The position numbers and the translations under genes were made by a program. Shown here piece after piece: positions 120 through 62,948 of a DNA stretch of 64,000 bases; position 1 is the first letter of the stretch; every line of letters starts with the position of its first letter. Under the pieces are notes generated by a model that had not been told where the DNA came from, ran no database searches, and saw nothing but the letters and a program-made list of their open reading frames with translations. The DNA lies in NCBI GenBank assembly GCA_015063645.1, contig SVTS01000004.1, positions 1,155-65,154 of the forward strand. The letters run 5' to 3'. Origin of the DNA: Oscillospiraceae bacterium. GTDB lineage: Bacteria > Bacillota > Clostridia > Oscillospirales > CAG-272.

Positions 120-1613
120 ATGAACGCAAAACGCATTCTCGCAGCACTGCTTGCATCCCTGATGCTCGTACCGGCGCTGGCTGCCTGCTCGGATGAAGGT
201 GCAGGCACCCCCGCGGACGATACCACCGCCGCAGACGTTACCACCGAACCTGCTGAAACCGAACCCCGCGAAACCGAACGCCACGAGATCAAGGACGATC
301 TGCCCAAGGATCTGAAACTGGGCGGCAAGACGATCAACTTCTTTATCGCTACCGAAGCTGTCTATGACAACTACGTCATGGGCAGTGATGAAAAAGCCGG
401 CGATGTAGTCAACGAAGCCGTTCGTCTCCGCAACAATAACGTGCAGGAGCAGTTGGGATTTGTCTTCAAGGCAAGCCGCAACTCAGAGACGCTGGAGACC
501 GTTGGCCCCGCTGTTTCTTCTCTGATTCTGGCAGGCGACTCCACCTATGATGCATTCCTCGCGCAGCAGTGCCGCATCACGGGTCTGGTTTCCCAGAAGC
601 TGTTCTACAACGGCTACGATCTGAAATACGTGAACTATGAGCAGCCGTGGTGGCTGAACAACTTCATGGATGAGCTGACTCTCGGTACGTCCTACCGTCC
701 TCTGCTGGTCAGCGACTTCAATACGGGTACCATCGAGGCGATCCGTGCCAACATCTTCAATAAGGATCTGTACCGTGATCTGTACGGCGATCCTGATGCG
801 CTGTATCAGGAGGTTCTGGACGGCAAATTCACCTTTGACCGCATGAACGAACTGGTTGCCGGTGCATACAAAGATCTGAACGGTAACGGCAAGACCGACG
901 TGGATGACCAGCTGGGTCTTCTGGCGTGGGCTCTGCAGGCATCCGTTGACCCCTTCGTTTACTCCGGTGAGATCGGCTTTACCACCCGCGATAAGGACGG
1001 TTACATCCAGCTGAACATGATTTCCGAGGAAGCGGTTGCTCTGTGCGAGAAGCTCTGCGCCTTCTTCCATCAGCCTGCTGTATCCTCTGCCGCCGGTAAG
1101 AATCCCGCGAACTTCTTCGTGTCCGGTAATATCCTCTTCATGGGCAACGGTACCTTCGGCTCCTGCTCCGCTCTGCGTGATATGGAAGACGACTACGGTA
1201 TTCTGCCCCATCCGAAGATGACGGAAACCCAGGAAACCTACTACTCTCTCGTACATGATACATCTCTGCTGACGGGTGTGTCCATCGCTTCGAAGAATCT
1301 GGATGTTGTCGGTGCGGTTCTGGAAGCGCTTGCCGCCGAATCCTACCGCCGCGTAACGCCCGCATACTATGAATCCGCACTGAAGCTGAAGTATGCCCGC
1401 GATGACGTGTCCTCTCAGATGATCGACCTGATCAAGAGCAACATGACCACCAACTTCATCTATGCATACAATACCTCTCTGAATGCCATCGGTCATATCT
1501 ACCGCACGCTAGTTACCAAGAATAACGTAGAATACGTTTCCATGGTGCAGAGCAAGCTGCCTGCCGCTGAGGCAAGCCTGGCTGAACTGGTTAAGACGTT
1601 CAAGGGTGAGTAA
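120..1613 (+). CDS. extracellular solute-binding lipoprotein, large (~500 aa) ABC sugar-SBP family, paralog group A
   Basis: 497 aa ORF; RBS AAAGGAGAG upstream; signal peptide plus lipobox LAAC; T/E/P-rich linker; close paralog of 55686..57170 and 42967..44448 (shared ETERHEIKDDLP and LPAAE..L.E.VKTFKGE ends). Confidence 0.85.
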   Translation: MNAKRILAALLASLMLVPALAACSDEGAGTPADDTTAADVTTEPAETEPRETERHEIKDDLPKDLKLGGKTINFFIATEAVYDNYVMGSDEKAGDVVNEAVRLRNNNVQEQLGFVFKASRNSETLETVGPAVSSLILAGDSTYDAFLAQQCRITGLVSQKLFYNGYDLKYVNYEQPWWLNNFMDELTLGTSYRPLLVSDFNTGTIEAIRANIFNKDLYRDLYGDPDALYQEVLDGKFTFDRMNELVAGAYKDLNGNGKTDVDDQLGLLAWALQASVDPFVYSGEIGFTTRDKDGYIQLNMISEEAVALCEKLCAFFHQPAVSSAAGKNPANFFVSGNILFMGNGTFGSCSALRDMEDDYGILPHPKMTETQETYYSLVHDTSLLTGVSIASKNLDVVGAVLEALAAESYRRVTPAYYESALKLKYARDDVSSQMIDLIKSNMTTNFIYAYNTSLNAIGHIYRTLVTKNNVEYVSMVQSKLPAAEASLAELVKTFKGE

Positions 1614-1660
1614 GAAAACAAAAAAAGCATCGGAAAACTCCAATGCTCTGGAACACAGAC

Positions 1661-1694
1661 AAAAGCCCACTTCCTTTTCGGAAGTGGGCTTTTT
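1661..1694. terminator. bidirectional rho-independent terminator between SBP gene and pgsA
   Basis: AAAA-GCCCACTTCC-ttttc-GGAAGTGGGC-TTTTT hairpin with A-run and T-run flanks. Confidence 0.8.
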
Positions 1695-1700
1695 CAACAA

Positions 1701-2282
1701 TCAGAAATCTTTCAGGTATTTTGCGTAGCCCCTGAAATAGTCGATACCGCTCCACAGAGTCATCACGATCATTGCCGCCGTGGTAATCCAGGAGAGGATA
1801 TGCCAATCGCAGAACAGAGCCAGGGGAATCAGCGGCTCAAGGAGCACGACAACAATGCACGCCACCTGCGTACAGGTCTTCACTTTCCCCAGCCAAGCTG
1901 CGGCAATCACCTCGCCGCCCTGGGATGCGGCAATCAGGCGCAGGGATGTCACCGCCATTTCGCGGGCGATGACAATCACAGCCGCCCATACGAAAATGGG
2001 GCGCAGATCCGCGCAGGGCGGATAGACCAGAATGCCCAGCATAGCGCCGAACACCATCATCTTATCCGCAAGGGGATCCATCAGCTTGCCGAAATTGGTG
2101 ATCAGATTGTATTTGCGGGCGATTTTGCCGTCCAGCATATCGGTGAAGGATGCCAGACCAAAGATCGCCGCGGCGATCAGTCGGCACGCCCACTCCGGGA
2201 TCGGCAGCGGAACGCACAGGAACACCATGAATATCGGGATCATGACGATCCGCAGCATTGTGAGTTTATTGGGAAGGTTCAT
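1701..2282 (-). CDS. pgsA: CDP-diacylglycerol--glycerol-3-phosphate 3-phosphatidyltransferase
   Basis: MNLPNKLTMLRI... and DMLDGKIARKYN..FGKLMDPLADK CDP-alcohol phosphatidyltransferase motif; start moved to internal ATG at 2282, preceded by AAAGGAGA. Confidence 0.9.
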   Translation of the reverse strand: MNLPNKLTMLRIVMIPIFMVFLCVPLPIPEWACRLIAAAIFGLASFTDMLDGKIARKYNLITNFGKLMDPLADKMMVFGAMLGILVYPPCADLRPIFVWAAVIVIAREMAVTSLRLIAASQGGEVIAAAWLGKVKTCTQVACIVVVLLEPLIPLALFCDWHILSWITTAAMIVMTLWSGIDYFRGYAKYLKDF

Positions 2283-2430
2283 GGAGGGGTCTCCTTTTTG
2301 AAGTTTTGGGGACAATGGCACTGAATCGCGCCTGAAAAACTGAATGCGGATAAAAATAACAAAAATACCGATATGCCGCATTTGTTCGATGGGGCGTCGA
2401 GGGCGCCGCCCCCTACAGTGAAAGGTAGAA

Positions 2431-26782: not shown

Positions 26783-27637
26783 ATGACAGGTATTCCTTTT
26801 TGGGACATTGAGGTAAATGAGTATACGGCAGGCTATACGGTCTCCGAGGGCTTCTCCATGGACGGAGAGCACGCTCATCATCATATGGAGTTTCTTTTCA
26901 ACTTCTCTCCGATCCCTACCCGGTACACGCTCAACGGAAACATATACGAAGTGGATACGCCGAGCATTTCCTACCGTGCGCCGTATATTCTGCATTCCGG
27001 CTCCACCGTGCACGCCTGTAATCCGGGCGGCTACCGACGGTTTGCCCTGAACGTCCATCCCTGCATTCTGGCGGAATACGGCGGCATCTGCGATATGGGA
27101 CGTCTTCGTGACCGGACCGAATGCCTGCTCCCTCTGCGTGTGGAGCAGATACAGAAATTCGAGCCGATTCTGGATCGGCTGCAGACAAAGGGAGTAAAAC
27201 CGCTTCCCCGGCATGCGTGGATCGGACTGTTTTCCGCCCTGCTGACGGAAATCGACCGACTCATCCCGGAGGAGGAGAGCACCGGCAAACACGGTCAGGA
27301 GATTCACCCCTACATTCAGGAGCTCCTGCGCTTTGTCGTGGACAATCCCGGAGAAAATCTGAGCACGCAGGCGCTGGCGGAAAAATTCTTCGTCAGCCGT
27401 GCCAAGCTATGCGCGGACTTCCGCGCCGCCACGCGGATTTCTCTGCACGAATATGTCACCGCCATCCGCATCGCCCATGCCAAGCTGTGGCTTGCAGAGG
27501 ACATGCCGCTGTCGCTGATTGCGGAGAGATGCGGATTCTCACAGGAATCCTCGTTCATCTACATGTTCCGCCGCCGCACCGGCATGACGCCGGGTGAATG
27601 GCGGGAGAGGAAAAAAATACCGGAAACTTCAGACTGA
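26783..27637 (+). CDS. AraC family transcriptional regulator
   Basis: C-terminal double HTH (..IAERCGFSQESSFIYMFRRRTGMTPGEWR); N-terminal IPFW..EV sensor domain paralogous to 44615..45457; divergent from SBP gene. Confidence 0.85.
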   Translation: MTGIPFWDIEVNEYTAGYTVSEGFSMDGEHAHHHMEFLFNFSPIPTRYTLNGNIYEVDTPSISYRAPYILHSGSTVHACNPGGYRRFALNVHPCILAEYGGICDMGRLRDRTECLLPLRVEQIQKFEPILDRLQTKGVKPLPRHAWIGLFSALLTEIDRLIPEEESTGKHGQEIHPYIQELLRFVVDNPGENLSTQALAEKFFVSRAKLCADFRAATRISLHEYVTAIRIAHAKLWLAEDMPLSLIAERCGFSQESSFIYMFRRRTGMTPGEWRERKKIPETSD

Positions 27638-29446: not shown

Positions 29447-29474
29447 ATCGTTACCTCAGTTATAACTGGAATTA

Positions 29475-33148: not shown

Positions 33149-33200
33149 ATCAGAATCTCCTTTTGTATGTAAGGATATTATGCGGTAATCATACATGGTC

Positions 33201-33229: not shown

Positions 33230-33329
33230 TAGGGCAGCGGAAAATTCAGCAAAAAAATCCGCTCCGCGCACATAAATCCCGCCATACTGCACAAACTACC
33301 CACGAATCAATCAGAAAGGAATTACAATC

Positions 33330-42023: not shown

Positions 42024-42860
42024 TTATTTACGCTTCTTGGAAACCACAACGCCGCCGAGGGATGCTGCTGCAACAACAGCGATGACAGCGAATGCATCAA
42101 AGGTTGCGGGAGCGGTGGTGGAAGAAGCGGGCTTCTGGGTCTGTGCCGCGGGCTTGGTAGTCTCTGCAGGCTTGGTAGCAGCTGCTTCAACCTTTACTTC
42201 CTTATCGGAAAGGGTAACATAGTCATACTTCTTTGTCTCATTTGTGCCGGGGTTGTTCTTGTGAACGGGACCAACGGAGTTGCGGGTACCCCCACCGGTG
42301 ATATCATCAATAACGATATTGATACCGAGGTTAACGCCGGCCTTGGGTGCGACAAGAGCAGCCTCTGCGAGGTCGTATACAACTTCAACAATGTAACCGG
42401 TCTTTGTCATAGTGCAGGCTGACTGTGCGTTTTTCGCGCTTGCCGCATAACGGAAATCCAGACGGTTATCCTGTGCACTGACCATGACCTTGTAGGCGTT
42501 CTTGGTGCTGCCGTTGTTCAGAAGGTCAACGATGTATTCGATGGCTTCGTTCTCATAGATGTTCTTGGCTGTGTCTACGGGAACGATCTCGGGGTCGGTT
42601 ACTTCAGCTGCCATGTAGAGCTTGTTGTTGCCCCAGAGAAGGTAAGCAACACCGGAAGCTTTGGGCGTGCCGGAGGTGGTCTTATTAAGTTTTACAGCCA
42701 GACCCTGAGAGTAGATCTCGTCGATTTTGCCGTCGAGCTTGATCTCGCCCTTATAAAGCGGGATATCGCCCCATTTGTTGCCGTCTGCGTTTGCGAATAC
42801 CGTTACTGCAAGAGATGCGATCATAAGCAGTACGAGTACCAGAGAGGTGAGCTTTTTCAT
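42024..42860 (-). CDS. secreted CBM9/DOMON-like carbohydrate-binding protein with C-terminal PATFDA-TM-KKRK anchor
   Basis: Signal peptide MKKLTSLVLVLLMIASLAVTVFA; IKLDGKIDEIY.. and LLWGNNKLYMAAEVTD blocks typical of CBM9-like domains; T/P/A/K linker, APATFDA, 17-aa hydrophobic helix, SKKRK end. Confidence 0.7.
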   Translation of the reverse strand: MKKLTSLVLVLLMIASLAVTVFANADGNKWGDIPLYKGEIKLDGKIDEIYSQGLAVKLNKTTSGTPKASGVAYLLWGNNKLYMAAEVTDPEIVPVDTAKNIYENEAIEYIVDLLNNGSTKNAYKVMVSAQDNRLDFRYAASAKNAQSACTMTKTGYIVEVVYDLAEAALVAPKAGVNLGINIVIDDITGGGTRNSVGPVHKNNPGTNETKKYDYVTLSDKEVKVEAAATKPAETTKPAAQTQKPASSTTAPATFDAFAVIAVVAAASLGGVVVSKKRK

Positions 42861-42966: not shown

Positions 42967-44448
42967 TTACTGACCCTTGAACGCCTTGACAAACTCTTCC
43001 AGCAGATTCTGTGCAGCGGGAAGTGTGGAAGCGATTTTGGACATGTAACTGTCATCGTTGTTGACGATCAGCTTGCGGTGAACATGACCGATACGGTTCA
43101 GCGCGTAGTTGTACGCATAGATGAAGTCAGAGGTCATCGTTTCGCGGATCAGGTCGATCATCTGCGTGGAAAGGCTGTCGCGGGCATACTTCAGCATCAA
43201 CTCGGATTCATAGTATGCGGGAGTAACGTAGTAGTAGGACTGTGCGGAAAGTGCTTCCAGAACCGCGCCGGTCATCTCGATATTATCGGAGGAAACGGGA
43301 ACGCAGCTCAGCTGTGCGGTTGCGGCAACCTGGGTCTTGTAGTTCTCCTGCGTATCGGAGGTCTTGGGGAAGGGCAGGAAGCCAAAGTCGTCTTCCATAT
43401 CGCGCAGACCTGCGGCGGTGGACAGCATACCGGTCACAAAGAGGGCGTTGCCCGCCTTGAAGACGTCGGTTCTCGAATGCTCAGCATCGACATGGGAGCC
43501 GGGACCGTGGAAGATCGCGTTCAGACGGTTGATGATTTCGTAGGAATCCTCGCTTCCGACGGTCAGCTCAACGAAGCCGTCATCGGTACGCTTGGTATGG
43601 GAAACGTGACCGCCGTAAACCCACGGATCGGAGGTGGAGTTGAGGGAGGAGGCATAGTAGCCCAGCTGGTCGGTATAATCCACAGCACCGTTACCGTTCA
43701 GATCCTTATAGGAGCCCTGTACCAGCTGCTTGAAGTAATCCAGCGTCCAGTTTCCGTCCAGAACCTTCTGATACAGATCATCGGGATTGCCATAGAGATC
43801 CTGATAAAGATTCTTATTGAAGAAATTGGAGTGGGTATACGCAAATACATGGGTATTATAGTCGCTGACCAGCAGGAAGCGGTGCGTCTTGCCCAGTGCC
43901 ATGTCATCCATGTACTTGTTGAACCACCACGGCTTGTCGAAGTTGACGTACTTCAGATCATAGCCGTTGACGAATACCTTCTGGGGAACCAGATACGGCA
44001 CTGAAACGTCCATGCCGAGGAACAGATCGTAGGTGTTGTCATCCGCCATGATCAGAGCGGAAATCTTCAGGTGGTTGTCACTGTAGGAATCGTCGAAGCC
44101 GTTGCATTCAATCTTGATCTTCAGACGCTCTTCCACAGCGAGGTTGCGTGCCCATACGGTTTCGTTGAGAAGGTCACCCTTCAGCTCCTCGGAGCCCATA
44201 ACGAACTTGGTACCGTTGGATTTTGTGGAAGCATACACGCGCCAGGTCTTGTTCTTGTAGTTCAGATCGGCGGGCAGATCGTCCTTGACTTTCAGACGCT
44301 CGTTTTCCTCTTCCGTTTCGGCTGCCGTGGTAGTCTCTCCCGAAACAGCGGTGGTATCCGCAGAAGGAGTACCGGAATCGTCCGAACAGGCGGCCATTGC
44401 AGGCACAAGCATCAGAAGCGCGAGCAGTACAGATATGATTTTCTTCAT
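42967..44448 (-). CDS. extracellular solute-binding lipoprotein, large SBP family, paralog group A
   Basis: Start MKKIISVLLALLMLVPAMAACSDD (lipobox MAAC); C-terminus ..LPAAQNLLEEFVKAFKGQ as in 120..1613. Confidence 0.85.
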   Translation of the reverse strand: MKKIISVLLALLMLVPAMAACSDDSGTPSADTTAVSGETTTAAETEEENERLKVKDDLPADLNYKNKTWRVYASTKSNGTKFVMGSEELKGDLLNETVWARNLAVEERLKIKIECNGFDDSYSDNHLKISALIMADDNTYDLFLGMDVSVPYLVPQKVFVNGYDLKYVNFDKPWWFNKYMDDMALGKTHRFLLVSDYNTHVFAYTHSNFFNKNLYQDLYGNPDDLYQKVLDGNWTLDYFKQLVQGSYKDLNGNGAVDYTDQLGYYASSLNSTSDPWVYGGHVSHTKRTDDGFVELTVGSEDSYEIINRLNAIFHGPGSHVDAEHSRTDVFKAGNALFVTGMLSTAAGLRDMEDDFGFLPFPKTSDTQENYKTQVAATAQLSCVPVSSDNIEMTGAVLEALSAQSYYYVTPAYYESELMLKYARDSLSTQMIDLIRETMTSDFIYAYNYALNRIGHVHRKLIVNNDDSYMSKIASTLPAAQNLLEEFVKAFKGQ

Positions 44449-44614: not shown

Positions 44615-45457
44615 GTGAAGAAAAATAATCCGATCAAATCCCATATCCCGTTCTGGTCGATGGAAGTTCCAACCGTCTGTTTTACACCGGCGCACACGGA
44701 CACAGGCTATGCGATCAGCACAGAGCACGCGCACCAGCACTATGAGATGAACTTCTGCTACTCACATGCATCTATCCGCCACACCGTGAGCGGCAAGATT
44801 ATCGACACGACCACGCCGTTTTTCTCCTTCCGCGCACCGCTGGTACTCCACTCCGTACGGACGCTGGATGACAGACCGTACACACGTTCCAACGTATACT
44901 TTCATCCGGGAATGCTGAAGAAATACGAAAACATCTGCTCCCTCGGCAAGCTGAGCAACGTGCGCGCATGCACCATTCCCACTGATGAGAAGCAGATGGA
45001 ATATCTGGATAAGCTGATCGGGCATATGGGACGCCTGTGGGAAGAAGATGCTCCGGAGAATGTCTGTGTAAGCCTGCTGGCTGCTCTTCTGTATGAAGTC
45101 AATGCCCTTGTCCCGGAGGATCTGCCTCCGCAGACGGAGACACCGCCGTACATACAGGAGGTCATGCTGTACATCGTGGGACATATCGAGGATAATCTGA
45201 CGCTGGACAGTCTGTCGAGGCAGTTTTTCATCAGCAAAAGCAAGCTGGCACAGGATTTCCACTCCGTGACGGGACAGAGTGTGCACGATTACACCACCGC
45301 AATCCGCATGTGGCGTGCAAAAAGCATGCTCACGGAGGGCATGCCGCTGTCCATCATCGCCGACGCCTGCGGATTCTCCCGGGATTCCGCGCTGATCACC
45401 ATGTTCCGCCGCGAGTCGGGCATGACGCCCACCGAGTGGCTGAAATCCGTGCAGTAA
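44615..45457 (+). CDS. AraC family transcriptional regulator (paralog of 26783..27637)
   Basis: GTG start; IPFWSMEV.. sensor domain, C-terminal ..IADACGFSRDSALITMFRRESGMTPTEW HTH; divergent from SBP gene. Confidence 0.85.
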   Translation: MKKNNPIKSHIPFWSMEVPTVCFTPAHTDTGYAISTEHAHQHYEMNFCYSHASIRHTVSGKIIDTTTPFFSFRAPLVLHSVRTLDDRPYTRSNVYFHPGMLKKYENICSLGKLSNVRACTIPTDEKQMEYLDKLIGHMGRLWEEDAPENVCVSLLAALLYEVNALVPEDLPPQTETPPYIQEVMLYIVGHIEDNLTLDSLSRQFFISKSKLAQDFHSVTGQSVHDYTTAIRMWRAKSMLTEGMPLSIIADACGFSRDSALITMFRRESGMTPTEWLKSVQ

Positions 45458-45578: not shown

Positions 45579-48503
45579 ATGAACGATAAGACTCTTTCCG
45601 CGATTCAGCAAACCGCGAAATCCTACGGCTCCGTGCCTTTCTGGAGCTGGAACGATGATCTGGAGCCGGAGGAACTCCGTCGGCAGATCCGCGCCATGGA
45701 CAAAATCGGCATGAACGGCTTCTTCATGCATGCCCGCGGCGGTCTGGAGACCGAATATCTCTCCGACAGATGGTTCGAATGCATCAATGCCTGCGTGGAC
45801 GAAGCAAAGAAGCTGGGCATGGATGCCTGGAGCTATGACGAAAACGGCTGGCCCTCCGGATTCGCCGGCGGTCTGCTTCTGAAGGACGAGGACAATTTTG
45901 CCCGCTATCTGACCCACGCCGAAGAGGATACCTATCCCACCGACAGCGCGGTTCTGGGCGTATATAAAATCGAGGACGGCAAGTGCCGCAAGGCGACTGC
46001 CGCCGACAGCGCACCGTTCTGCGTTGTCCGCGAGGGTGCGGATTCCTCCTATGTGGACGTACTCCGTCAGGATGTCATCGCCAAATTTATCGAAGTTACC
46101 CACGAGGAATACAAGCGCCGTGTCGGCGAGGATTTCGGCGGCGTGATGCCCGGATTCTTCACCGATGAACCCCAGTATTACCGTTACGCCTCCCCGTGGT
46201 CGAAAAAGCTGCCCGAGGAATTCATGGCTCGCTTCGGCTACTCCATCGAAGAGATCTATCCCGCCGTGTTCTGGGATTTCGAGGGATGCGAAGCGTATCG
46301 CTACGATTATTATCTGCTGCTGCATGAATTGTTCATGAAGAATTTCGCCAAGCAGATCTACGACTGGTGTGAGGAAAACGGCTGCCAGCAGACCGGTCAC
46401 GCCATCGACGAGGGTTCCCTTGGCGGACAGGTCATGTGCTGCGGCGGCGTTATGCCTTTCTATCAGTACGAGCACGTTCCGGGCGTAGACTATCTGGGAC
46501 GCGATATCCAGACGGATCTGCTGGGCAAGCAGCTTGGTTCCGCCTGCGCACAGCTTGGACGCAAAAAGGCACTTTCTGAAACCTTTGCCTGCGCCGGCTG
46601 GGATGTCAGCCCCCGTGAACTCAAGCGCATCGCCGAGATGCAGTACGCCGGCGGCGTCAATCTGATGTGCCAGCATCTGTATCCGTACTCCGAGCGCGGT
46701 CAGCGCAAGCGCGATTATCCCCTGCACTACTCCGAGCACAGCCCGTGGTATGACAAGATGGTGGATTTCGACCGTCACTTCACCAATCTGGGTGCACTGC
46801 TCGGTGCCGGCGAGGAATATTCCACCACGCTGGTGATCCATCCTGTCCGTGCGGCATACCGCGTATACAAGCGCCACCTGGGTCACGGCTCCTGCGGTCA
46901 GCTGGATGCGGATCTCCGGGTACTGATGAAACAGCTGGGCGACGCACAGGTTCCCTATCACTTTGGTGACGAGGGCATGATGGAGACGATGGCATCCGTG
47001 GAGGGTGCAAAGATCCGCGTGGGTCTGTGTTCCTATGACTACATCATCGTTCCCAAAATGGAGACGCTGACGGCGAACACCGTAAAGCTTCTGCGTGAAT
47101 TCGCCGCAAATGGCGGCAAGATCTGGTTCGCGGGCGATGTTCCCGGCGAGATCGACGCAAGAGCTGCCGATCTGTCCGATCTGTCCTCTACCACCTCCTT
47201 TGAGGAGATCGCCGCCGCTTCCGATGTGATCACCACGCTTGACGGCGGGATCGTGCCCGCACTCCGTCAGCGCATCCGCGTAATGGACGGACGGAAGATC
47301 ATCTTCACTGCCAACATTACCGCTGCTGATCACTACGGCGTGCGCATGAACATCAAAAACTGCGCCGGCGCGGCAGGCGTCTCCACCGATACACTGGAAA
47401 AATTCCCGCTGATGGGCGAGAAGAATGCCGACGACTCCCTCACCGTAGCACTGGACTTCCCCGCCTCCCATTCCATCGTGATCATCGAGGACGCGGACGC
47501 GCAGATGCTGCCGATTCCCGCATCCTTCGGCGCAAAGCCCGCCATGGCTCTGCCGGAGATCTGGAAGCTGTCCGCTCCGCTGACCAATGCTCTGACCATT
47601 GACTACGCAGCCATCTCGAAGGACGGCGGCGCAAGCTGGACGGAAGACCGTCCCATCGAGCGGGTGCGCGATGAGCTGCTCCGCGAGCAGTACGAAGGCA
47701 ATCTGCTCCTCCGCTATCCCTTCACGGTAGACGTAATTCCCGCATCCGCGGAGATCGTCTGGGAGAATCCCGGCGTGAAGAGCGTCCGGGTCAACGGTGT
47801 CGAGGTACAGGCGAACGGTTATCTCCATCCCGACAAGGCGTTCAGCCGTGCGGATGTGGCATCCCTCCTGCAGGTTGGCGTGAACGGCATCGTCCTGGAA
47901 TACGACTATTATCAGAAGCCGCTGGTCTATGACGTACTCTTCGGCGACGTTATGGAATCCCTGCGCAACTGTCTGAATTTCGATACGGAGATTGAATGCG
48001 TCTACGTCCGCGGTGATTTCCGCATCGGCATGGATCTAAGCAAGTGCACCGACACCGTCAAATCCGCCATCGAATACACCGGCACATTCCCGATCATCGC
48101 ACCCCGGTGTGAGATCGCCGTGCGGGACATGGTCCGCGACGGACTGCCCTTCTACGGCGGTGCCGTGGAAGCGGAATGCACCGTCGGCTGGAAGCCGGGT
48201 GACGCAACCGTCTTCCGTCCGGATGGCAGATTTGCCGCTGTGGACGTATGGGTGAACGAAGCGTATGCCGGCATGGTCTTCTTCAACAACGAGCTGGATC
48301 TGGCAAAATATCTGCGTGAAGGCGACAACACGCTCCGCATCCGCATCGTCAATGCGCTCCGCAACACCGCCGGCCCGCATCACCGCGCCGACGTGGAGCC
48401 CTTCAGCGTAGGTCCGGTCACGTTCTCCTTTGAGAAGCAGTGGAAAGACGGTCAGTGCGCCGCTTATCTCACCCGTTATGCATTTGTGAAATACGGAATT
48501 TAA
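45579..48503 (+). CDS. large intracellular glycoside-hydrolase-like protein (N-terminus resembles the PFWSWND.. GH106/GH2-like family)
   Basis: 974 aa; SVPFWSWNDDLEPEELRRQIRAMDKIGMNGFFMHARGGLETEYLS..YDENGWPSGFAGG; RBS AAGGAGA; family call tentative. Confidence 0.7.
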   Translation: MNDKTLSAIQQTAKSYGSVPFWSWNDDLEPEELRRQIRAMDKIGMNGFFMHARGGLETEYLSDRWFECINACVDEAKKLGMDAWSYDENGWPSGFAGGLLLKDEDNFARYLTHAEEDTYPTDSAVLGVYKIEDGKCRKATAADSAPFCVVREGADSSYVDVLRQDVIAKFIEVTHEEYKRRVGEDFGGVMPGFFTDEPQYYRYASPWSKKLPEEFMARFGYSIEEIYPAVFWDFEGCEAYRYDYYLLLHELFMKNFAKQIYDWCEENGCQQTGHAIDEGSLGGQVMCCGGVMPFYQYEHVPGVDYLGRDIQTDLLGKQLGSACAQLGRKKALSETFACAGWDVSPRELKRIAEMQYAGGVNLMCQHLYPYSERGQRKRDYPLHYSEHSPWYDKMVDFDRHFTNLGALLGAGEEYSTTLVIHPVRAAYRVYKRHLGHGSCGQLDADLRVLMKQLGDAQVPYHFGDEGMMETMASVEGAKIRVGLCSYDYIIVPKMETLTANTVKLLREFAANGGKIWFAGDVPGEIDARAADLSDLSSTTSFEEIAAASDVITTLDGGIVPALRQRIRVMDGRKIIFTANITAADHYGVRMNIKNCAGAAGVSTDTLEKFPLMGEKNADDSLTVALDFPASHSIVIIEDADAQMLPIPASFGAKPAMALPEIWKLSAPLTNALTIDYAAISKDGGASWTEDRPIERVRDELLREQYEGNLLLRYPFTVDVIPASAEIVWENPGVKSVRVNGVEVQANGYLHPDKAFSRADVASLLQVGVNGIVLEYDYYQKPLVYDVLFGDVMESLRNCLNFDTEIECVYVRGDFRIGMDLSKCTDTVKSAIEYTGTFPIIAPRCEIAVRDMVRDGLPFYGGAVEAECTVGWKPGDATVFRPDGRFAAVDVWVNEAYAGMVFFNNELDLAKYLREGDNTLRIRIVNALRNTAGPHHRADVEPFSVGPVTFSFEKQWKDGQCAAYLTRYAFVKYGI

Positions 48504-55685: not shown

Positions 55686-57170
55686 TTATTCGCCCTTGAA
55701 GGTCTTGATCAGTTCAGCCAGTTTCTGCTCAGCGGCAGGCAGCTTGGACTGTACGGTGGAAACGTAGTCAGAGGAGTTATTGGTGATCAGGGTACGGAAC
55801 ACGTGAGCGATGCTGTTGAGAGAGGAGTTATAAGCAAAGATGAAGTTGGTGGACATGGAATCCTTGATCATATCGATCATCTGGGAAGAAATGTCGTCAC
55901 GGGCATACTTCAGCTTCAGTGCGGATTCATACCATGCGGGAGTTACGCGGCGGTAGGATTCAGCGGCGAGAGCTTCCAGCATTGCGCCGGTAAATGCCAG
56001 ATCCTTGGAGGTGATGGAAACACCGGTCAGATGGTTGGTGTCATGTACAACGGAGTGGTATGCTGTCTGCTCGTCATAGATCTTCGGGTTGGGCAGATAA
56101 CCGTAGTCATCCTCCATGTCACGCATACCGGTAGCGTTATTCAGGAGACCGTTGCCCATGAACAGGGATCTTCCCTCGGTGAAAATCTGAACTTCCTTAC
56201 CGCCGGACTTGGTATTGACTGCCTGCTGGTGGAAGAATACGTTCAGCTTATCCAGCAGCTTGATGGCTTCGTCGTTGATCATGTTCAACTGAATAAAGCC
56301 GTCCTTATCACGGGTAGTGAGCGGAACCTCGGAACCGTAAACAAAGCCGTCGGTAGTAGAGAGAAGCTGATTAGTGATGAAGCCAAGCTGGTCAGTGGTA
56401 TCCACCACGCCGTTGCCGTCCAGATCGGAGTACGCGCCGGAAACGAGGGTGTTCAGCTTATCCAGCGTCCACTTGCCGTCCAGAGCGTCCTTGTACAGTT
56501 CGTTGGGATCGCCGTAGAGCTTTTCATAGAGAACCTTATTGAAGAAAAGTGCACGGATATATGCGATGGTCTGGGTATTATAATCGCTGGCGAGCAGGAA
56601 ACGGTAGTCCTTGCCGAGGGAGATCTCATCCATGAAGTTGTTCATCCACCACGGCTGATCGAAATTCACGTGGGGAAGTTCAAAGCCGTTGACGAACATC
56701 TTCTGGGAAACGAGGGAGGTCATACCGTACTGAGAGCCGACGTAGATATCATATGTTGCATCTCCTGCCAGAATCAGCGTGGAAACTGCGGCGGGGATTT
56801 CCTTATAGTTCTTATTTTCGGTAACCATATTCAGCTTGACGCCAAAACGGTCCTCAACATTTGCATTTCTTTCCCAAACAGCTTCGACAACAACGTCACC
56901 GGCTTTTTCTTCCTTACCGGCATAAAAGTCATCAAAAACAGCCTGGGTACCGATATAGATGCCGAAAGTCTTGCCGTCGAATTTCAGATCGGCAGGGAGA
57001 TCGTCCTTGATCTCATGGCGCTCGGTCTCCGGGGGTTCGGTTTCAACGGGAGCGGTGGATTCTGTGGAAGCGGTGGTATCGGCAGGCTTGCCGGAATCGG
57101 AGCAGGCTGCCATTGCGGGAATCAGCATCAGGGATGCCAGAATCGCTGCAAGAATACGCTTGGTTGCCAT
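55686..57170 (-). CDS. extracellular solute-binding lipoprotein, large SBP family, paralog group A
   Basis: Start MATKRILAAILASLMLIPAMAACSDSG (RBS AAGGAGAG); near-identical architecture and C-terminus to 120..1613. Confidence 0.85.
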   Translation of the reverse strand: MATKRILAAILASLMLIPAMAACSDSGKPADTTASTESTAPVETEPPETERHEIKDDLPADLKFDGKTFGIYIGTQAVFDDFYAGKEEKAGDVVVEAVWERNANVEDRFGVKLNMVTENKNYKEIPAAVSTLILAGDATYDIYVGSQYGMTSLVSQKMFVNGFELPHVNFDQPWWMNNFMDEISLGKDYRFLLASDYNTQTIAYIRALFFNKVLYEKLYGDPNELYKDALDGKWTLDKLNTLVSGAYSDLDGNGVVDTTDQLGFITNQLLSTTDGFVYGSEVPLTTRDKDGFIQLNMINDEAIKLLDKLNVFFHQQAVNTKSGGKEVQIFTEGRSLFMGNGLLNNATGMRDMEDDYGYLPNPKIYDEQTAYHSVVHDTNHLTGVSITSKDLAFTGAMLEALAAESYRRVTPAWYESALKLKYARDDISSQMIDMIKDSMSTNFIFAYNSSLNSIAHVFRTLITNNSSDYVSTVQSKLPAAEQKLAELIKTFKGE

Positions 57171-57315: not shown

Positions 57316-57978
57316 TTATCTCTTCTTCTTCAGAACAACGGTACCTGCGAGAGATACAGCTGCGACGGCGGCAACGATGATGCCTGCGTCAAAGGTAGCG
57401 GGAGCCGCAGGAGTTGCAGCGGGCTTGGTGGTTGCAGCGGGAGCCTTGGTGGTCTCCTCAGCCGGCTTAGGTACGTAGATGCGGAGAGCAGCCTTATCGC
57501 CTTCCGTTACGGCACGGGTAGGAGTAACAGACAGGTTGAAAGCGCGAACTGCGAAAGTACCCCACCATTCCTTGGTAACTTCAACAACATTGGTGTTTAC
57601 GTTGCCGGGACGGGCGACGTCATCCTTGGAGAGATCGGCATTAACCCATCCCTCGGGACGGTACTGATAGCCTGCGTCAACGATGATGATGGAGCCAACG
57701 GGCAGTTCCTTCTGGGTGAAGGTCTTGGATGCGATGTAGTTGGGCAGATTGGAAGCGTCGCTGTTTGCCTTGCTGATTACAACATTGCCATATGTGGTAT
57801 CGCTGGAGTTGTAATAAGCGTTCATCTCGCCGAACCAATCGAGAGCAACATAGTCGGAAGACTTCTTGCCGAGGGACTCGATGAGTTTGGCATCGGCGGA
57901 CGGAACAGCAGCGATAGAGGGAGCCATCATGGCAACTACCATGAGAGCGCAGAGGAGAAATGCAGCGAACTTTTTCAT
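57316..57978 (-). CDS. secreted protein of unknown function with C-terminal PATFDA-TM-KKKR anchor
   Basis: Signal peptide MKKFAAFLLCALMVVAMMAPSIAA; T/P/A/K linker, APATFDA, hydrophobic helix GIIVAAVAAVSLAGTVV, LKKKR end. Confidence 0.7.
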   Translation of the reverse strand: MKKFAAFLLCALMVVAMMAPSIAAVPSADAKLIESLGKKSSDYVALDWFGEMNAYYNSSDTTYGNVVISKANSDASNLPNYIASKTFTQKELPVGSIIIVDAGYQYRPEGWVNADLSKDDVARPGNVNTNVVEVTKEWWGTFAVRAFNLSVTPTRAVTEGDKAALRIYVPKPAEETTKAPAATTKPAATPAAPATFDAGIIVAAVAAVSLAGTVVLKKKR

Positions 57979-58125: not shown

Positions 58126-59613
58126 TCAGCCTTGGTTTCCGGCCTGGATCGTCGCGATCAGATCGGCGATTGCATTTGCGGCGACTGTCCGCTTGGATGC
58201 ATCGTGGGTCACAAGGGTGTTCTTTCCCTGATTAACCACTTTGTAGATCTGCGTCAGATAGCTGCCCCAGTTGTACACGGAGCCGATATCCATCACCAGC
58301 GTATTGTGGATAATTTCCAGCATATCCACGGATTGCACATCGCGCGCGAGCTTGGATTCCAGATACGCCTCGTAGAATACGGGCAAGACGTTATAGTAGG
58401 ATTCGTATGCCATTGCCTCCAGCACAAAAGAGACATCATCGACATTCTTTACGCTGATCGGCACGGCGAACATGGGAACATTAAAACAGGAAGCGGTATG
58501 GATATAGTTCTCCTGCTCGGCATTCGCCTTCGGTATGGGCAGAATACCGTAGTTGATCTCATACTCGCGGCAACCGTCCTCCAGCATGGAAATCTGCACC
58601 AGGAGCTGATCGTTCTGCATCATGCGGTTGGATTCCGTCCAGATGTGATCCACGTTCTTGATGTTGCGGATACAGAGGTAATTGGTGGTGTCGGCAAAGA
58701 TGTTGTTCACCAGCTTATCCCAGAGGTTAATGGCCTCCTCGGTAGCGGCGGTAATGTAGGGAATATCGTTTTCATCCTTGTCAGCGATCAGGTAGCCCGC
58801 CCCTACGGCCAGACAGTAGCCGGAGTAGTCATCGGCGCTGTGACCCCAGCGGTCGTTGTTGTCGCGGACGCCGTCACCGTTCAGATCGGCGGCACCGACC
58901 CTAATCAGCTTGATGAACTCGTCCAGCGTCCAGGTGCCGTCATACGCCATCTGATAGTAATTGTTGATATCCAGACCGTTGTCCTTCATCAAATCAATAT
59001 TGACGATCGGATGATAAAGCCACTGCCGGGAGGTGAGGCTGAATGCATTGGCGGACATGAACAGCTTGTTCATCAGTGTAAGAGAGTCGTTCAGCTGATG
59101 AAACCACCACGGCTGATCAAAATCCTGATACTTCAGGGTATTCATATCGTAAAGCAGATTGCCTGAAACGTAATAAATCAGGCTGTTGCGTGGGCCGTCG
59201 ATCAGCACCTGATAGGAGTCGTCACCCGCCTGCACGTTCTGCAGGATATCCTTGGTGGGCGTGGCCTGGTTGGTGGGAGAGATCTGAAGTATTTCAAAAT
59301 TATACTTCTCGTTCAGCGCCAGATTACGCGCATAGACCGCATCGTTGACGCTTTCGCCGTTCTCCTCCTCAGCATATACACCCTTTTCGGTCTTGCCGTA
59401 GAAGGTGAACACCTGCCCCTCCAGATCCATCGCCTTGGGCAGACCGGAGGGAATTTTGGTCTCCTCCGGCTCGGTGACTGCGGGAGCGGTGGATTCCGTA
59501 CTTTTGTCGGAGGTTTCCGGCGTATCGTCCGCATCCGGCGCCGAGCATGCGGTCAGTGCGGAGCCAAGCATCACGGATACCAGAAGCACTGCGGTAATTT
59601 TTCTGATATTCAT
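58126..59613 (-). CDS. extracellular solute-binding lipoprotein, large SBP family, paralog group B
   Basis: MNIRKITAVLLVSVMLGSALTACSAPD lipobox; shares ..PEETKIPSGLPKAMDLEGQ.. and C-terminal ..Q(A/K)GN(Q/E)G with the next two genes. Confidence 0.85.
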   Translation of the reverse strand: MNIRKITAVLLVSVMLGSALTACSAPDADDTPETSDKSTESTAPAVTEPEETKIPSGLPKAMDLEGQVFTFYGKTEKGVYAEEENGESVNDAVYARNLALNEKYNFEILQISPTNQATPTKDILQNVQAGDDSYQVLIDGPRNSLIYYVSGNLLYDMNTLKYQDFDQPWWFHQLNDSLTLMNKLFMSANAFSLTSRQWLYHPIVNIDLMKDNGLDINNYYQMAYDGTWTLDEFIKLIRVGAADLNGDGVRDNNDRWGHSADDYSGYCLAVGAGYLIADKDENDIPYITAATEEAINLWDKLVNNIFADTTNYLCIRNIKNVDHIWTESNRMMQNDQLLVQISMLEDGCREYEINYGILPIPKANAEQENYIHTASCFNVPMFAVPISVKNVDDVSFVLEAMAYESYYNVLPVFYEAYLESKLARDVQSVDMLEIIHNTLVMDIGSVYNWGSYLTQIYKVVNQGKNTLVTHDASKRTVAANAIADLIATIQAGNQG

Positions 59614-59826: not shown

Positions 59827-61302
59827 TCAGCCTTCGTTGCCCTTCTTGACCTTTTCGATCAGATCGTCGATGGTCTTCTGAGCAGCTTCTTTCTTGGAAG
59901 CGTCGAAAGTAACGAGAGTGTTCTTACCCTGGTTAACGACCTTATAAATCTCGTTCAGATAGCCGCCCCAGCCGTAGCATGCGCCTGCATCCAGAACGAT
60001 GGTATCGTGAACGATACGGAGCATGTCAACGGATTCCTTATCGCGTACCAGCTTGGTCTCGAGATAGTTCTCATAGAAATCAGGTAGTACTTCGTAGTAA
60101 GAATCGTATGCCATTGCTTCCAGAACGAAGGAGATATCGTCCAGATTCTTTGCGGTGATCGGCACACCCATCATCGGCACGTTATAACCGGAGGAGGTGT
60201 GGTAGTAGCTCTCCTGATCCGCAGTAGCCTTCGGAATCGGCAGGATACCGTAATCAACTTCAAATTCACGGTGAGTGTTGCTCAAAGTAGCGATGTAGGT
60301 CAGAATCTGATTGTTGCGGAACATACGGGTCTGCTCAGACCAGATGGAGGATACGTTCTTGATATTGCGGATGCAGAGGTAGTTGTTCGCGTCAGCGAAG
60401 ATGTTGTTAACCAGCTTGTCCCAGAGAGTGATACCCTCTTCGGTAGCGGCAGAGATAACGGGTTTGTCATTCTCGTCCTTCTGGGTGATCATGTAACCGC
60501 CGCCAACTGCCAGAACGTAGCCTGCGTAGTCCTCGCCGGTGTGACCCCAACGGTCATTGTTGTCGCGGACACCGTCACCGTTCAGATCAACGGCACCGTT
60601 CTTGATCAGCTTGATGAACTCGTCCTGTGTCCACTTATTGTCATACACCATCTGGTAGTAGGTGTTCATGTCCAGATTGTTCGCCTTCATCAGATCCTTG
60701 TTGACAAAGATCAGATACAGGAATTCACGGGTCTTGAAAGAGAAGGAACCTGCGGTCATGTACAGCTTGTTTGCCAGAGATACGGACTTGTTCAGTTCCT
60801 GGAACCACCAGGGCTGATCAAAGTCCTGATACTTCATGGTGGTCATGTCCACCAGAAGCATGTTGGTTACATAGTTCTTCAGCGAGTTGCCGGGACCGTC
60901 GATGAGAACCTGGTAAGCGTCATCGCCAGCCTGTACGGAAGCCATGATATCCTTGGTGGGGTTGGTCTGGTTCTTCAGAATTTCCTGATAAACCGTGAAA
61001 TTGTACTGCTCCTGCAGACGGCGGTTGCGGTCGAAAACGAGGTCATTGATCGTTTCGCCCGTCTCTTCCTCAGCATAGACACCGGTCTCGGTCTTGCCGT
61101 AGAAGATGAACTTCTGACCCTTCAGATCCATCTTTTCAGGCAGACCGGAGGGGATTCTGGTTTCCTCGGGTTCAGTGGTCACTTCGGGGGTAGTTTCTGC
61201 GGGTGCGGTGGTATCGGTGCTTTCGGCGGGAGCCTCGGAGCACGCGGCAAGAGTACTTCCCAGCATCAGAGCGGCGAGAAGCAGTGCCATAATCTTCTTC
61301 AT
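59827..61302 (-). CDS. extracellular solute-binding lipoprotein, large SBP family, paralog group B
   Basis: MKKIMALLLAALMLGSTLAACSEAP lipobox; very similar to 61461..62948 along the full length, at protein and DNA level. Confidence 0.85.
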   Translation of the reverse strand: MKKIMALLLAALMLGSTLAACSEAPAESTDTTAPAETTPEVTTEPEETRIPSGLPEKMDLKGQKFIFYGKTETGVYAEEETGETINDLVFDRNRRLQEQYNFTVYQEILKNQTNPTKDIMASVQAGDDAYQVLIDGPGNSLKNYVTNMLLVDMTTMKYQDFDQPWWFQELNKSVSLANKLYMTAGSFSFKTREFLYLIFVNKDLMKANNLDMNTYYQMVYDNKWTQDEFIKLIKNGAVDLNGDGVRDNNDRWGHTGEDYAGYVLAVGGGYMITQKDENDKPVISAATEEGITLWDKLVNNIFADANNYLCIRNIKNVSSIWSEQTRMFRNNQILTYIATLSNTHREFEVDYGILPIPKATADQESYYHTSSGYNVPMMGVPITAKNLDDISFVLEAMAYDSYYEVLPDFYENYLETKLVRDKESVDMLRIVHDTIVLDAGACYGWGGYLNEIYKVVNQGKNTLVTFDASKKEAAQKTIDDLIEKVKKGNEG

Positions 61303-61350
61303 GATGAATTCCTCCTATGATACAATAAATAGTACAGATTATGCATTTTT

Positions 61351-61379
61351 AGTTTATCACTTTCCGAACAGTTTGTCAA
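61351..61379 (-). promoter_or_regulatory. sigma-A promoter of 59827..61302
   Basis: Minus strand TTGACA-17 nt-(TGa)TAAACT. Confidence 0.55.
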
Positions 61380-61400
61380 CAGAAATTCGCATTTTACCAT

Positions 61401-61443
61401 AAAAAACCGTGCACCGCAGAGACCTGCGGTGCACGGCAAAAAA
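61401..61443 (-). terminator. terminator of 61461..62948
   Basis: CCGTGCACCGCAG-agac-CTGCGGTGCACGG with A-run and T-run flanks. Confidence 0.8.
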
Positions 61444-61460
61444 CGGGAATATTCTTTTTA

Positions 61461-62948
61461 TCAGCCTTCGTTGCCGGCCTTGACTCTTTCGATCACAGTA
61501 TCGATGGTCTTCTGAGTGGATGCCTTCTTGGATGCATCAAAGGTAACGAGAGTATTGGTACCGGTATTGACTACCTTGTAGATCTCGTTCAGGTAGTAGC
61601 CCCAACCGTATACGGCACCGGCGTCCAGAACGATGGTGTCATGGACGATACGGAGCATATCCACGGACTCGCGGTCACGAACCAGCTTGGTCTCGAGGTA
61701 ATCCTCATAGAAGGTAGGCAGTACATCGTAGTAAGAGGTGTATGCCATGGCTTCCAGAACGAAGGAGATCTCGTCCAGGTTCTTGGCCGTGATCGGCACG
61801 CCCATCAGAGGTACGTTGTAGCTGGATGCGGTGTGGTAGTAGGATTCCTGATCCAGAGATCCCTTCGGGATCGGCAGGATGCCGTAGTCGATCTCATATT
61901 CGCGATATGCGTTGCCCAGCGTGGTGATCCAGGTCATGGCCTGATCGTTCTGGATCATACGGGTCATCTCGGACCAGATAGAAGATACGTTCTTGATATT
62001 GCGGATGCAGAGGTAGTTATTCGCGTTGGCGAAGATGTTATTAACCAGTTTATCCCACAGAATGACACCCTCTTCGGTAGCGGCGGAAACAATGGGCCTG
62101 TCATTCTCGTCCTTCTGGGTAATCATGTAGCCGGCACCGACTGCGAGGCAGTAGCCTGCGTAGTCCTCACCGAGGTGACCCCAGCGGTCATTGTGGTCGC
62201 GGACGCCGTCACCGTTCAGATCGGCTGCGCCGACCTTGATCATCTTGATGAACTCATCGTTGGTCCAGGTGCCGTCATACGCCATCTGGTAATAGTCGGC
62301 GATATTCAGACCGTTGGCCTTCATCAGCTCGGTATTGCAGATAACCATGTACAGCCAGCTGCGGGCAGAGAGAGAGAAGGCACCGGCGGTCATGTACAGC
62401 TTGTTGGCCAGGGATACGGAGTCGTTCAGCTCCTGGAACCACCAGGGCTGCTCAAAGTCCTGATACTTCATGGTGGTCATATCCACCAGCAGCATATTGG
62501 TTACGAAATTGCGCAGGGAGTTGCCGGGTCCGTCGATAAGGACCTGATAGGTATCATCGCCTGCCTGAATAGAAGCCTGGATATCCTTGGTGGGGTTGGT
62601 CTGGTTTTTGAGCTTCTCCTGGAAGATCTTGAAGTTGTACTGTTCCTGAAGAGCCAGATTGCGGGCGAAAACAACGTCATTGACCTTGTCGCCGGTCTCT
62701 TCTTCCGCGTACACACCGGTCTCAGTCTTGCCGTAGAAGGTGAACGTCTGCCCCTTCAGATCCATTTTTTCGGGCAGACCGGAGGGGATCTTGGTCTCCT
62801 CAGGCTCTGTGGTCACTTCGGGAGTGGTTTCCACAACAGCGGTGGTACCGGTATCGGTGGTCTCCGCCGGTGTGTCAGAGCACGCGGCGAGAGTGCTTCC
62901 CAGCATCAGCGCGGCGAGAAGCATCGCGATCATACGCTTAGCGTTCAT
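61461..62948 (-). CDS. extracellular solute-binding lipoprotein, large SBP family, paralog group B
   Basis: MNAKRMIAMLLAALMLGSTLAACSDTP lipobox; tandem duplicate of 59827..61302. Confidence 0.85.
   Translation of the reverse strand: MNAKRMIAMLLAALMLGSTLAACSDTPAETTDTGTTAVVETTPEVTTEPEETKIPSGLPEKMDLKGQTFTFYGKTETGVYAEEETGDKVNDVVFARNLALQEQYNFKIFQEKLKNQTNPTKDIQASIQAGDDTYQVLIDGPGNSLRNFVTNMLLVDMTTMKYQDFEQPWWFQELNDSVSLANKLYMTAGAFSLSARSWLYMVICNTELMKANGLNIADYYQMAYDGTWTNDEFIKMIKVGAADLNGDGVRDHNDRWGHLGEDYAGYCLAVGAGYMITQKDENDRPIVSAATEEGVILWDKLVNNIFANANNYLCIRNIKNVSSIWSEMTRMIQNDQAMTWITTLGNAYREYEIDYGILPIPKGSLDQESYYHTASSYNVPLMGVPITAKNLDEISFVLEAMAYTSYYDVLPTFYEDYLETKLVRDRESVDMLRIVHDTIVLDAGAVYGWGYYLNEIYKVVNTGTNTLVTFDASKKASTQKTIDTVIERVKAGNEG

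Follow-up and report, generated by a model that had tools for sequence, protein, structure and literature searches.

How does a bacterium use solute-binding receptors whose genes stand apart from any transporter? The question is raised by a 64,000-nucleotide stretch of Oscillospiraceae DNA (contig SVTS01000004.1, positions 1,155 to 65,154; here called the window), which holds seven paralogous solute-binding lipoproteins of about 495 amino acids each (SBP1 to SBP7) and no gene for a transporter that could serve them. A first-pass annotation of the window, made from the sequence alone, proposed either that many such receptors feed a few distant permeases, or that they have a non-transport role such as surface glycan capture or sensing. 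We find that the stand-alone layout is truly a property of the whole family to which these proteins belong, and not an effect of the window's edges.

The source contig, 65,744 bp long, corresponds to JGI 3300031555, Ga0318466_10010277, and belongs to a metagenome-assembled genome (MAG) deposited at NCBI as 'Ruminococcaceae bacterium', with the locus-tag prefix E7662. It extends beyond the window by about 1.7 kb in total, of which 1.15 kb lies upstream of the window start. The GC content of the window is about 57%. All of the sequence compared below comes from metagenome contigs and MAGs.

Seven lipoproteins with the fold of sugar-binding proteins

All seven genes named in the first-pass annotation were found at the same positions in the list of open reading frames (ORFs), and their products can be aligned end to end (alignment A1). 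The genes, with the basis of each assignment, are as follows.

120..1613, + strand: SBP1, group A, 497 amino acids, E7662_00985 (ORF, lipobox and linker, AlphaFold2 and Foldseek)
25157..26650, - strand: SBP2, divergent member, 497 amino acids from the ATG at 26650 (SBP_bac_1, 29.6 bits)
42967..44448, - strand: SBP3, group A (ORF, lipobox and linker, identity)
55686..57170, - strand: SBP4, group A (ORF, lipobox and linker)
58126..59613, - strand: SBP5, group B (ORF, lipobox and linker, identity)
59827..61302, - strand: SBP6, group B (SBP_bac_1, 29.4 bits)
61461..62948, - strand: SBP7, group B, 79% identical to SBP6 (ORF, lipobox and linker)

The longest ORFs of SBP2, SBP3 and SBP4 start slightly further upstream; the ATGs at 26650, 44448 and 57170 yield a normal signal peptide. 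As the first reading had claimed, each of the seven proteins has a signal peptide, a lipobox cysteine (in the contexts LAAC, LTAC and LPAC) and a T/E/P-rich linker of about 30 residues. The lipobox cysteine is invariant in an alignment of 60 homologues (alignment A2). Pairwise identities bear out the proposed division into two subfamilies and one divergent member, with values of 48-61% within group A (SBP1, SBP3, SBP4), 64-79% within group B (SBP5, SBP6, SBP7), and 27-31% between SBP2 and the other six.

The sole Pfam match to these proteins is SBP_bac_1, which was found in only two of the seven (SBP2 and SBP6) at about 29 bits against a cut-off of 26; the other five have no match. NCBIfam gave only spurious signal-peptide matches on the binding proteins. 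An AlphaFold2 model built from alignment A2 had a predicted local distance difference test (pLDDT) score of 89.6 and a predicted template modelling (pTM) score of 0.85, with disorder only in the signal peptide and linker. When this model was compared with the PDB using Foldseek, the top matches included GacH, the Thermotoga binding protein Tlet_1705 and hundreds of MalE entries, with E values of about 1e-13, a probability of 1.0 and TM-scores of 0.45-0.64 for these three. A family profile run against PDB sequences matched AbnE (E 1.5e-5) and several MalE. Two motifs typical of family-1 binding proteins generally, 'DLNGDGxxDxxD' and 'DYGILPxPK', can be aligned with the AbnE sequence. About 35 positions in alignment A2, including aromatic and charged residues and the family-1 motifs, are near-invariant among members that are only 28% identical. 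They include R104, D140, W177, W178, N214, Y229, W237, R353, K366, Q371, Y374, E402, Y409, R427 and D428.

The first-pass annotation would have been overturned had these proteins lacked a solute-binding-protein fold. By AlphaFold2 and Foldseek they retain the full two-lobe architecture of maltose-binding protein (MBP), together with the family-1 motifs. The structural matches and the profile matches to AbnE and MalE together identify the window lipoproteins as predicted divergent binding proteins of the carbohydrate uptake transporter 1 (CUT1) type, with the MBP fold.

No linked translocator in the window or its source population

The claim that the window contains no binding-protein-dependent permease or ATP-binding cassette (ABC) ATPase was confirmed by a Pfam scan of about 50 ORFs, comprising all long non-overlapping ORFs and alternative frames, in which neither PF00528 nor ABC_tran was matched. 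Six-frame scans of the window, with a pattern that picks up the two positive controls, revealed no CUT1 EAA motif, nor did they show a real gene in which Walker A and LSGGQ motifs occur together. Hydropathy and Pfam together give only four polytopic membrane proteins, namely pgsA, a MATE pump, a CPBP protease and a DUF3784 protein. The hydropathy scan also picked out two proteins that are secreted and anchored at the C-terminus.

Other contigs of the source population contribute 10 more family genes to the seven of the window, a total of 17 in about 132 kb. In this sequence the precomputed Pfam annotation lists neither PF00528 nor ABC_tran. The arrangement of the additional genes is as follows.

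L003, 11.5 kb: six paralogues and, interspersed among them, three AraC genes
L004: one paralogue and three AraC genes
L006: a single paralogue flanked by uvrB and gyrB
L170: a GH36-like gene, followed by the binding-protein gene and then AraC
L177: AraC divergent from the binding-protein gene, which is followed by GH127

Proteins of L003, L004, L006 and L177 bear the E7662 prefix, and L170 was assigned by common sample and not by MAG. Copies in the window also lie amid housekeeping genes, with pgsA and cysS nearby.

The family in other genomes

GTDB species representatives were scanned with the seven window paralogues as queries, yielding 346 relatives, from which the best 80 loci, in about 50 genomes, were analysed. 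Those 80 loci are all from uncultured Clostridia/Oscillospiraceae of the rumen or gut of ruminants, deer, chickens or humans. The complete comparative set consisted of 89 loci and the window (1.38 Mb from about 50 uncultured Clostridia genomes), and genes scoring above 100 with a family hidden Markov model (HMM) were counted as family genes. Flanking genes were called heuristically, with ORFs chosen by GC content at third codon positions (GC3) because a longest-ORF gene map is unreliable in high-GC loci; the procedure was checked on the window and is weaker for the few low-GC loci.

This set contains 173 family genes, about half of which have another member within 1 kb, in tandem arrays. A pair of CUT1 EAA motifs was found only in L015, at a distance of 3.8 kb from a family gene and within an ATPase-permease-permease-SBP_bac_8 operon that has its own canonical binding protein. 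The resulting ratio of 173 family genes to one CUT1 pair is not genome-wide, because the loci were chosen around family genes and are a biased sample. A Pfam census of 84 flanking ORFs rich in transmembrane (TM) segments found five BPD_transp_1 proteins. Two of these are the L015 pair, one (L009) is of the polar amino-acid type and lies beside an SBP_bac_3 gene and an ATPase, and the remaining two are probably those of L059 and L077, judged by weak phmmer similarity to L009. Precomputed annotation of two more lineages (L008 and L009) showed no permease around the family gene. Dedicated permease pairs just outside the window would have accounted for the layout. None was found in the population contigs or in the 1.38 Mb, and the stand-alone state is family-wide.

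The 139 immediate neighbours of family genes belong to 155 different families, led by AraC (9) and GFO/IDH/MocA (6). Further leading neighbours are HAD hydrolases, GDPD, GDSL, xylose-isomerase-like TIM barrels, GH123, PF12831 and GH43, and housekeeping genes also occur.

The family is very large. A library of 1.84 billion representative proteins, in which each entry stands for a cluster at 50% identity, contains 6,956 matching representatives at E <= 1e-30 and 15,611 at E <= 1e-3. Only some of the matches have a name from their source; among the matches listed, these names are 'hypothetical protein' or 'extracellular solute-binding protein', and all are from uncultured bacteria. We found no account in the literature of this family or of large-scale orphan or uncoupled CUT1 receptors, and a 2026 review of glycoside transporters makes no mention of shared or orphan binding proteins.

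Transcription units in the window

Promoter-like sites and intrinsic-terminator hairpins lie around most of the window copies. The first-pass annotation had taken each binding-protein gene to be monocistronic. For six of the seven this agrees with a terminator hairpin just 3' of the stop codon, but SBP3 has none. The sites are as follows.

1661-1693: bidirectional hairpin of SBP1
25147-25114: terminator of SBP2
55646-55677: bidirectional hairpin of SBP4
57240-57212: promoter-like site of SBP4, strong (11/12 matches), upstream of the start at 57170
58124-58086: terminator of SBP5
about 59816-59783: terminator of SBP6, with a 14-bp stem and U6 run (z-score -4.0), found by folding and absent from the pattern scan
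61379-61351: promoter-like site of SBP6
61437-61406: terminator of SBP7
63018-62989: promoter-like site of SBP7

SBP3 and a CBM9-like gene downstream of it probably form one operon, because no terminator was detected by pattern scan or folding in the gap of about 107-110 nucleotides between them.

In an Rfam scan of the 64 kb only a tRNA-Ser was matched, with no riboswitch or T-box, including upstream of cysS; no riboswitch control is therefore evident. The tRNA-Ser (GGA) lies at 34956-35048 (+) and is the sole Rfam/ARAGORN match.

AraC regulators and intracellular glycoside hydrolases

Two of the binding-protein genes had been described as divergently paired with AraC paralogues. The pairing is real for SBP2 and SBP3, but the number is three, since an AraC gene divergent from SBP1 is present on the 1.15 kb of the contig upstream of the window. 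The two regulators within the window, and the catabolic genes next to them, are as follows.

26783..27637, + strand: AraC regulator divergent from SBP2, with a cupin-like N-terminal domain and no TM segment (HTH_18/HTH_AraC)
27665..33292, - strand: FAD_oxidored (PF12831), GH123 and heparinase II/III-like genes, adjoining the SBP2/AraC module (Pfam; no signal peptides)
44615..45457, + strand: AraC regulator divergent from SBP3 (Pfam; promoter-like site 44550-44578)
45579..48503, + strand: GH106-like (alpha-L-rhamnosidase-like) gene downstream of AraC, without a signal peptide (Pfam)

The partner regulators form a subfamily with 37-48% identity over seven copies. They combine HTH_18 with an N-terminal region of cupin-like appearance ('IPFW...EHAHxxYE...RAPYxLHS', with a His motif), have no TM segment and no receiver (REC) domain, and are predicted to be cytoplasmic. 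An AraC gene lies within 600 bp of 9/18 family genes in the source population, compared with 8/155 elsewhere, and the pairing is therefore a lineage-specific elaboration. Modules in the source organism consist of an AraC regulator with one or two binding proteins, often accompanied by a glycoside hydrolase (GH).

GH123 and FAD_oxidored recur beside family genes in other genomes. At several loci the binding-protein gene lies inside or abuts an intracellular catabolic operon, in the slot usual for a complete ABC importer; examples are the L170 and L177 arrangements given above, an Esterase-BNR_4-GFO-GFO-SBP unit with a gap of 42 bp, and an amidohydrolase gene followed by SBP with a gap of 21 bp. 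Every glycoside hydrolase of the window (GH43, GH5, GH123, heparinase II/III-like and GH106-like) lacks a signal peptide, and oligosaccharides must therefore be imported. Apart from the binding proteins and two small anchored proteins, nothing encoded in these loci is exported.

A three-component sensor made up of a binding protein, a histidine kinase and an AraC response regulator was considered and rejected: the AraC partners have no REC domain or TM segment, and no histidine kinase is enriched among the 139 neighbours.

Proposed receptors for a shared translocator

On balance, it is somewhat more likely than not that the lipoproteins are receptors under separate regulation, which dock onto one or a few shared ABC translocators encoded elsewhere. 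The membrane-anchored MBP/CUT1-type lipoproteins would bind ligands outside the cell, which we infer to be oligosaccharides. The receptors would be interchangeable, and would hand these ligands to one or a few CUT1 translocators, each comprising a permease pair and an MsmX-like ATPase. A separate promoter and terminator would make each receptor gene an independent transcription unit. In this organism each would usually have a cytoplasmic AraC regulator of its own, which would respond to the sugar once imported, or to one of its breakdown products, and would then induce the matching receptor and the neighbouring intracellular GH. New specificities would arise by duplication of a receptor, or of an AraC-receptor(-GH) module, with the membrane machinery not duplicated. 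Such duplication would fit both the tandem arrays and the 79% identity between SBP6 and SBP7. Between the two alternatives put forward in the first-pass annotation, the evidence leans towards distant permeases and away from a non-transport role, because the GHs are intracellular, the AraC regulators appear to be cytoplasmic, and the SBP genes occupy the transporter slot of catabolic operons.

One candidate for a shared translocator was found, a conserved CUT1 operon with the gene order DUF4838, DUF2200, Band_7, MsmX-like ATPase, MalF-like, MalG-like, 537-amino-acid binding protein. It was seen in the following places.

L015, 868-7603: conserved operon
L173, 892-8869: conserved operon
L172: conserved operon
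L171, 20763-21551: ATPase of the operon type

This operon is the sole CUT1 translocator in the 1.38 Mb of family-centred sequence, and its MalG-like permease recurs at 72-90% identity over at least 592 metagenome stretches. The L171 ATPase lies 9 kb from a family gene and is 74% identical to that of L015. At least one genome with family genes does have a CUT1 translocator: SIG615, assembly GCA_015065385.1, carries the conserved operon in L172 and family members in L016, L019 and L076. That the operon acts as a shared hub for dozens of receptors is speculation, because no family gene was found within 10 kb in 80 MalG-centred metagenome loci (0.84 Mb), and a protein search returned no E7662-tagged orthologue in the top 120 matches.

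The emptiness of the MalG-centred loci is one of several observations that weigh against a shared translocator. Two sightings (L015 and L171) near about 92 family loci are close to chance expectation, and the sole candidate hub already has a canonical binding protein of its own. None of the 173 family genes adjoins a permease; in the precedents of the Bug receptors of tripartite tricarboxylate transporters (TTT) and of the Opp/Ali receptors, at least one paralogue is usually still beside the membrane components.

Small anchored proteins with a common tail

The first-pass annotation placed two of the binding-protein genes next to surface-anchored proteins. Two such proteins were found, beside SBP3 and SBP4/SBP5, each with a signal peptide and a C-terminal TM segment.

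42024..42860, - strand: secreted protein, CBM9-like, whose C-terminal anchor is AP[AQ]TFDAG-TM-KK[RK] (CBM9_1; signal peptide)
57316..57978, - strand: 220-amino-acid secreted protein with a C-terminal TFDAG-TM-KKKR anchor (hydropathy, tail motif)

The common tail consists of AP[AQ]TFDAG, about 20 hydrophobic residues and then KK[RK]. It is also present in three more proteins, at 12652-13539 (-) and 13800-14714 (-) in L030 and at 247-1113 (+) in L032. For four of these five proteins, spread over three genomes, a family gene lies no more than about 250 bp away, and the tail was found in none of the permease-centred loci. As no Pfam or NCBIfam model matches it, the tail could represent a sorting or anchor signal not yet described.

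The CPBP protease of the window, encoded at 52668-53615 (+), is an Rce1-like intramembrane enzyme that carries a zinc ribbon at its N terminus. It is conceivable that it processes the TFDAG-tail proteins, because it has weak, sub-threshold similarity to the C-terminal sorting proteases MrtJ/MrtS.

Alternative explanations

The proximity of TFDAG-tail proteins to family genes is what would be expected if the lipoproteins had a non-transport role. They would capture or retain glycans at the surface together with the CBM9-like TFDAG proteins, as SusD and surface glycan-binding proteins (SGBPs) do in function in Bacteroidota, or would act as signalling co-receptors, and would not dock onto an ABC translocator. 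The apparent co-transcription of SBP3 with the CBM9-like gene points the same way, as do the absence of an adjacent permease in 173 of 173 cases and the dispersal of the genes among housekeeping genes such as uvrB/gyrB, pgsA and cysS. We nevertheless consider this role unlikely, though a serious possibility. No sensor kinase, methyl-accepting chemotaxis protein or membrane-bound regulator is enriched near family genes, the AraC partners appear to be cytoplasmic, the window contains no extracellular GH that would profit from surface capture, and the complete MBP architecture has been kept along with the family-1 motifs. The more specific proposal that the lipoproteins and the CBM9-like TFDAG-tail proteins form a Gram-positive apparatus for glycan capture or sensing, Sus-like in function and never docking onto an ABC translocator, is marginally more doubtful.

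If the partner were instead an unrecognised or non-ABC component encoded elsewhere, for example a secondary transporter or permeases of a new family, the great rarity of CUT1 permeases in the 1.38 Mb (a single pair) would be accounted for, and MFS, EamA and MATE genes do occur sporadically nearby. However, no membrane-protein family is enriched among the 84 TM-rich flanking ORFs, where the most frequent are ordinary ABC exporters, MATE, MBOAT and MFS proteins. To our knowledge, MBP-type binding proteins do not serve MFS or drug/metabolite transporter (DMT) carriers, and we regard a partner of this kind as improbable.

Tandem arrays of diverged paralogues with their own promoters, in a very large family, might also suggest variable surface-coat lipoproteins that reuse the binding-protein fold for antigenic or phage-receptor variation. 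This is highly improbable, given the roughly 35 near-invariant positions among such divergent members and the association of the genes with regulators of the AraC type and with genes of sugar catabolism; signatures of recombination or of invertible promoters were not noticed, though no systematic search was made for them.

We give least credence to, and in effect reject, the explanation that these are ordinary CUT1 systems whose dedicated permeases lie just past contig ends or were lost by MAG fragmentation or misassembly: the data are all metagenomic and the source contig is hardly longer than the window, but on either side of the five internal window copies at least 10 kb is free of permeases, many GTDB loci have their full 10-kb flanks within contigs of 50-540 kb and still show no permeases, and six of the seven copies have their own terminator.

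Comparison with known systems

The family shares with the family-1 binding proteins of CUT1 importers (MalE, GacH, AbnE, Tlet_1705) the two-lobe MBP fold and a weak but specific similarity in sequence and profile, and the lipid anchoring of the window proteins is like that of Gram-positive binding proteins. Unlike these, it has no adjacent MalF/MalG-type permease pair in any of the 173 cases, falls mostly below Pfam/NCBIfam thresholds, and is about 100 amino acids longer than MalE. LplA-type (DUF3502) proteins of Bacillus and Paenibacillus are lipoproteins of about 500 amino acids that occur in a glycan-utilisation context, in operons with the LplB/LplC permeases. The window proteins resemble them in size, lipoprotein nature and glycan context, but have neither a DUF3502 match in Pfam nor permease neighbours.

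Bordetella and Cupriavidus carry dozens of stand-alone genes for Bug proteins, the TctC-type receptors of TTT systems, which far outnumber the membrane components. The first-pass annotation had likened the window to this arrangement. The likeness holds for the layout, in which the receptors are in surplus and unlinked (173 family genes and one CUT1 pair in the family-centred sequence), but not for the proteins, which are MBP-like and have no match to TctC (PF03401). Bug proteins, on which PMC11452294 gives background, belong to a different fold family. Their partner is a secondary TctAB carrier, in place of the ABC translocator proposed here, and they are periplasmic, whereas the window proteins are Gram-positive lipoproteins.

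Several receptors per translocator, some of them encoded apart, are well known from HisJ/ArgT with HisQMP, AmiA/AliA/AliB with AmiCDEF, and multiple OppA. Here, too, receptors of differing specificity are proposed to use one translocator. Those systems have 2-5 receptors, usually with one in the transporter operon, and belong to amino-acid and peptide families; here there are at least 17 copies in the source population, none of them linked, and the type is CUT1.

Firmicutes CUT1 importers are also known to share a component encoded elsewhere, namely the multitask ATPases MsmX and MsmK (PMC7658222, PMC5730181). In that case the shared part is the ATPase and each binding protein keeps its permease pair, whereas here the permeases would be shared. 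With SusD and SGBPs the likeness is functional only, as the fold is that of MBP and not the TPR-rich SusD fold, and the host is monoderm with no SusC-like gene.

These comparisons suggest that the receptor fold is known and that the large-scale uncoupling of CUT1 receptors from permeases is new. Annotation pipelines, and the definition of polysaccharide-utilisation loci in Gram-positive bacteria, assume that a CUT1 binding protein adjoins its permeases. A very large family, with about 7,000 cluster representatives at 50% identity, restricted among the loci analysed to uncultured Clostridia of the rumen and gut, and nearly invisible to Pfam and NCBIfam, consistently breaks this rule. If the translocator is shared, glycan specificity would have been diversified by duplicating the receptor or the AraC-receptor-GH module alone, an economical design that has not been described for sugar ABC importers at such a scale, and counts of transporters would give far too low a figure for the range of substrates open to these abundant gut taxa. 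If the role is not in transport, the family would be a new surface glycan-binding system, and a large branch of the solute-binding-protein superfamily that does not transport and has not been described. Either way it offers many candidate oligosaccharide-binding proteins, whose neighbours (GH123, GH127, GH43, GH106-like, heparinase-like) hint at the substrates. GH123 would suggest glycans that contain GalNAc, GH127 beta-L-arabinofuranosides, GH43 oligosaccharides of arabinan or xylan, and the GH106-like gene rhamnogalacturonan or rhamnosides.

Further genes of the window

A GFO/IDH/MocA oxidoreductase gene leads a cluster at 16506-20538 (+); behind it come genes for three xylose-isomerase-like TIM-barrel paralogues and for a beta-helix protein. 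A fourth TIM-barrel paralogue is encoded at 35775-36713 (+). The oxidoreductase is weakly similar to disaccharide 3-dehydrogenases of the BT_2159 type (75 bits, far below the cut-off), and the cluster resembles those for oxidative cleavage of 3-keto-glycosides or C-glycosides. Next to the CBM9/SBP3 unit, at 36781-42085 (+), are three large ORFs of 728, 474 and 440 amino acids with no Pfam or NCBIfam match and no signal peptide, which may be novel catabolic enzymes of the SBP3 locus. Upstream of the group B array, an ORF at 63117-63983 (-), truncated at its 5' end by the end of the window, is similar to NAD(P)-dependent glycerol-1-phosphate/glycerol dehydrogenases (AraM/EgsA-like; 90 bits, below the cut-off).

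The region between recA and recX, at 3820-7435 (-), encodes a GH43 protein, an unannotated protein of 240 amino acids and a RecF-like SMC_N/AAA_15 ATPase. The ATPase gene overlaps that of the 240-amino-acid protein by 4 bp, and this is an unusual location for a recF-like gene; the two products could possibly be a defence-system ATPase pair. RecA proper is encoded at 7530-8678 (-) and has 382 amino acids. A longer 'recA' ORF of 836 amino acids, at 7530-10040 (-), is an artefact of high GC content, and its upstream part overlaps an acetyltransferase/cyclase gene at 8910-10001 (+) in the JGI gene calls (L001).

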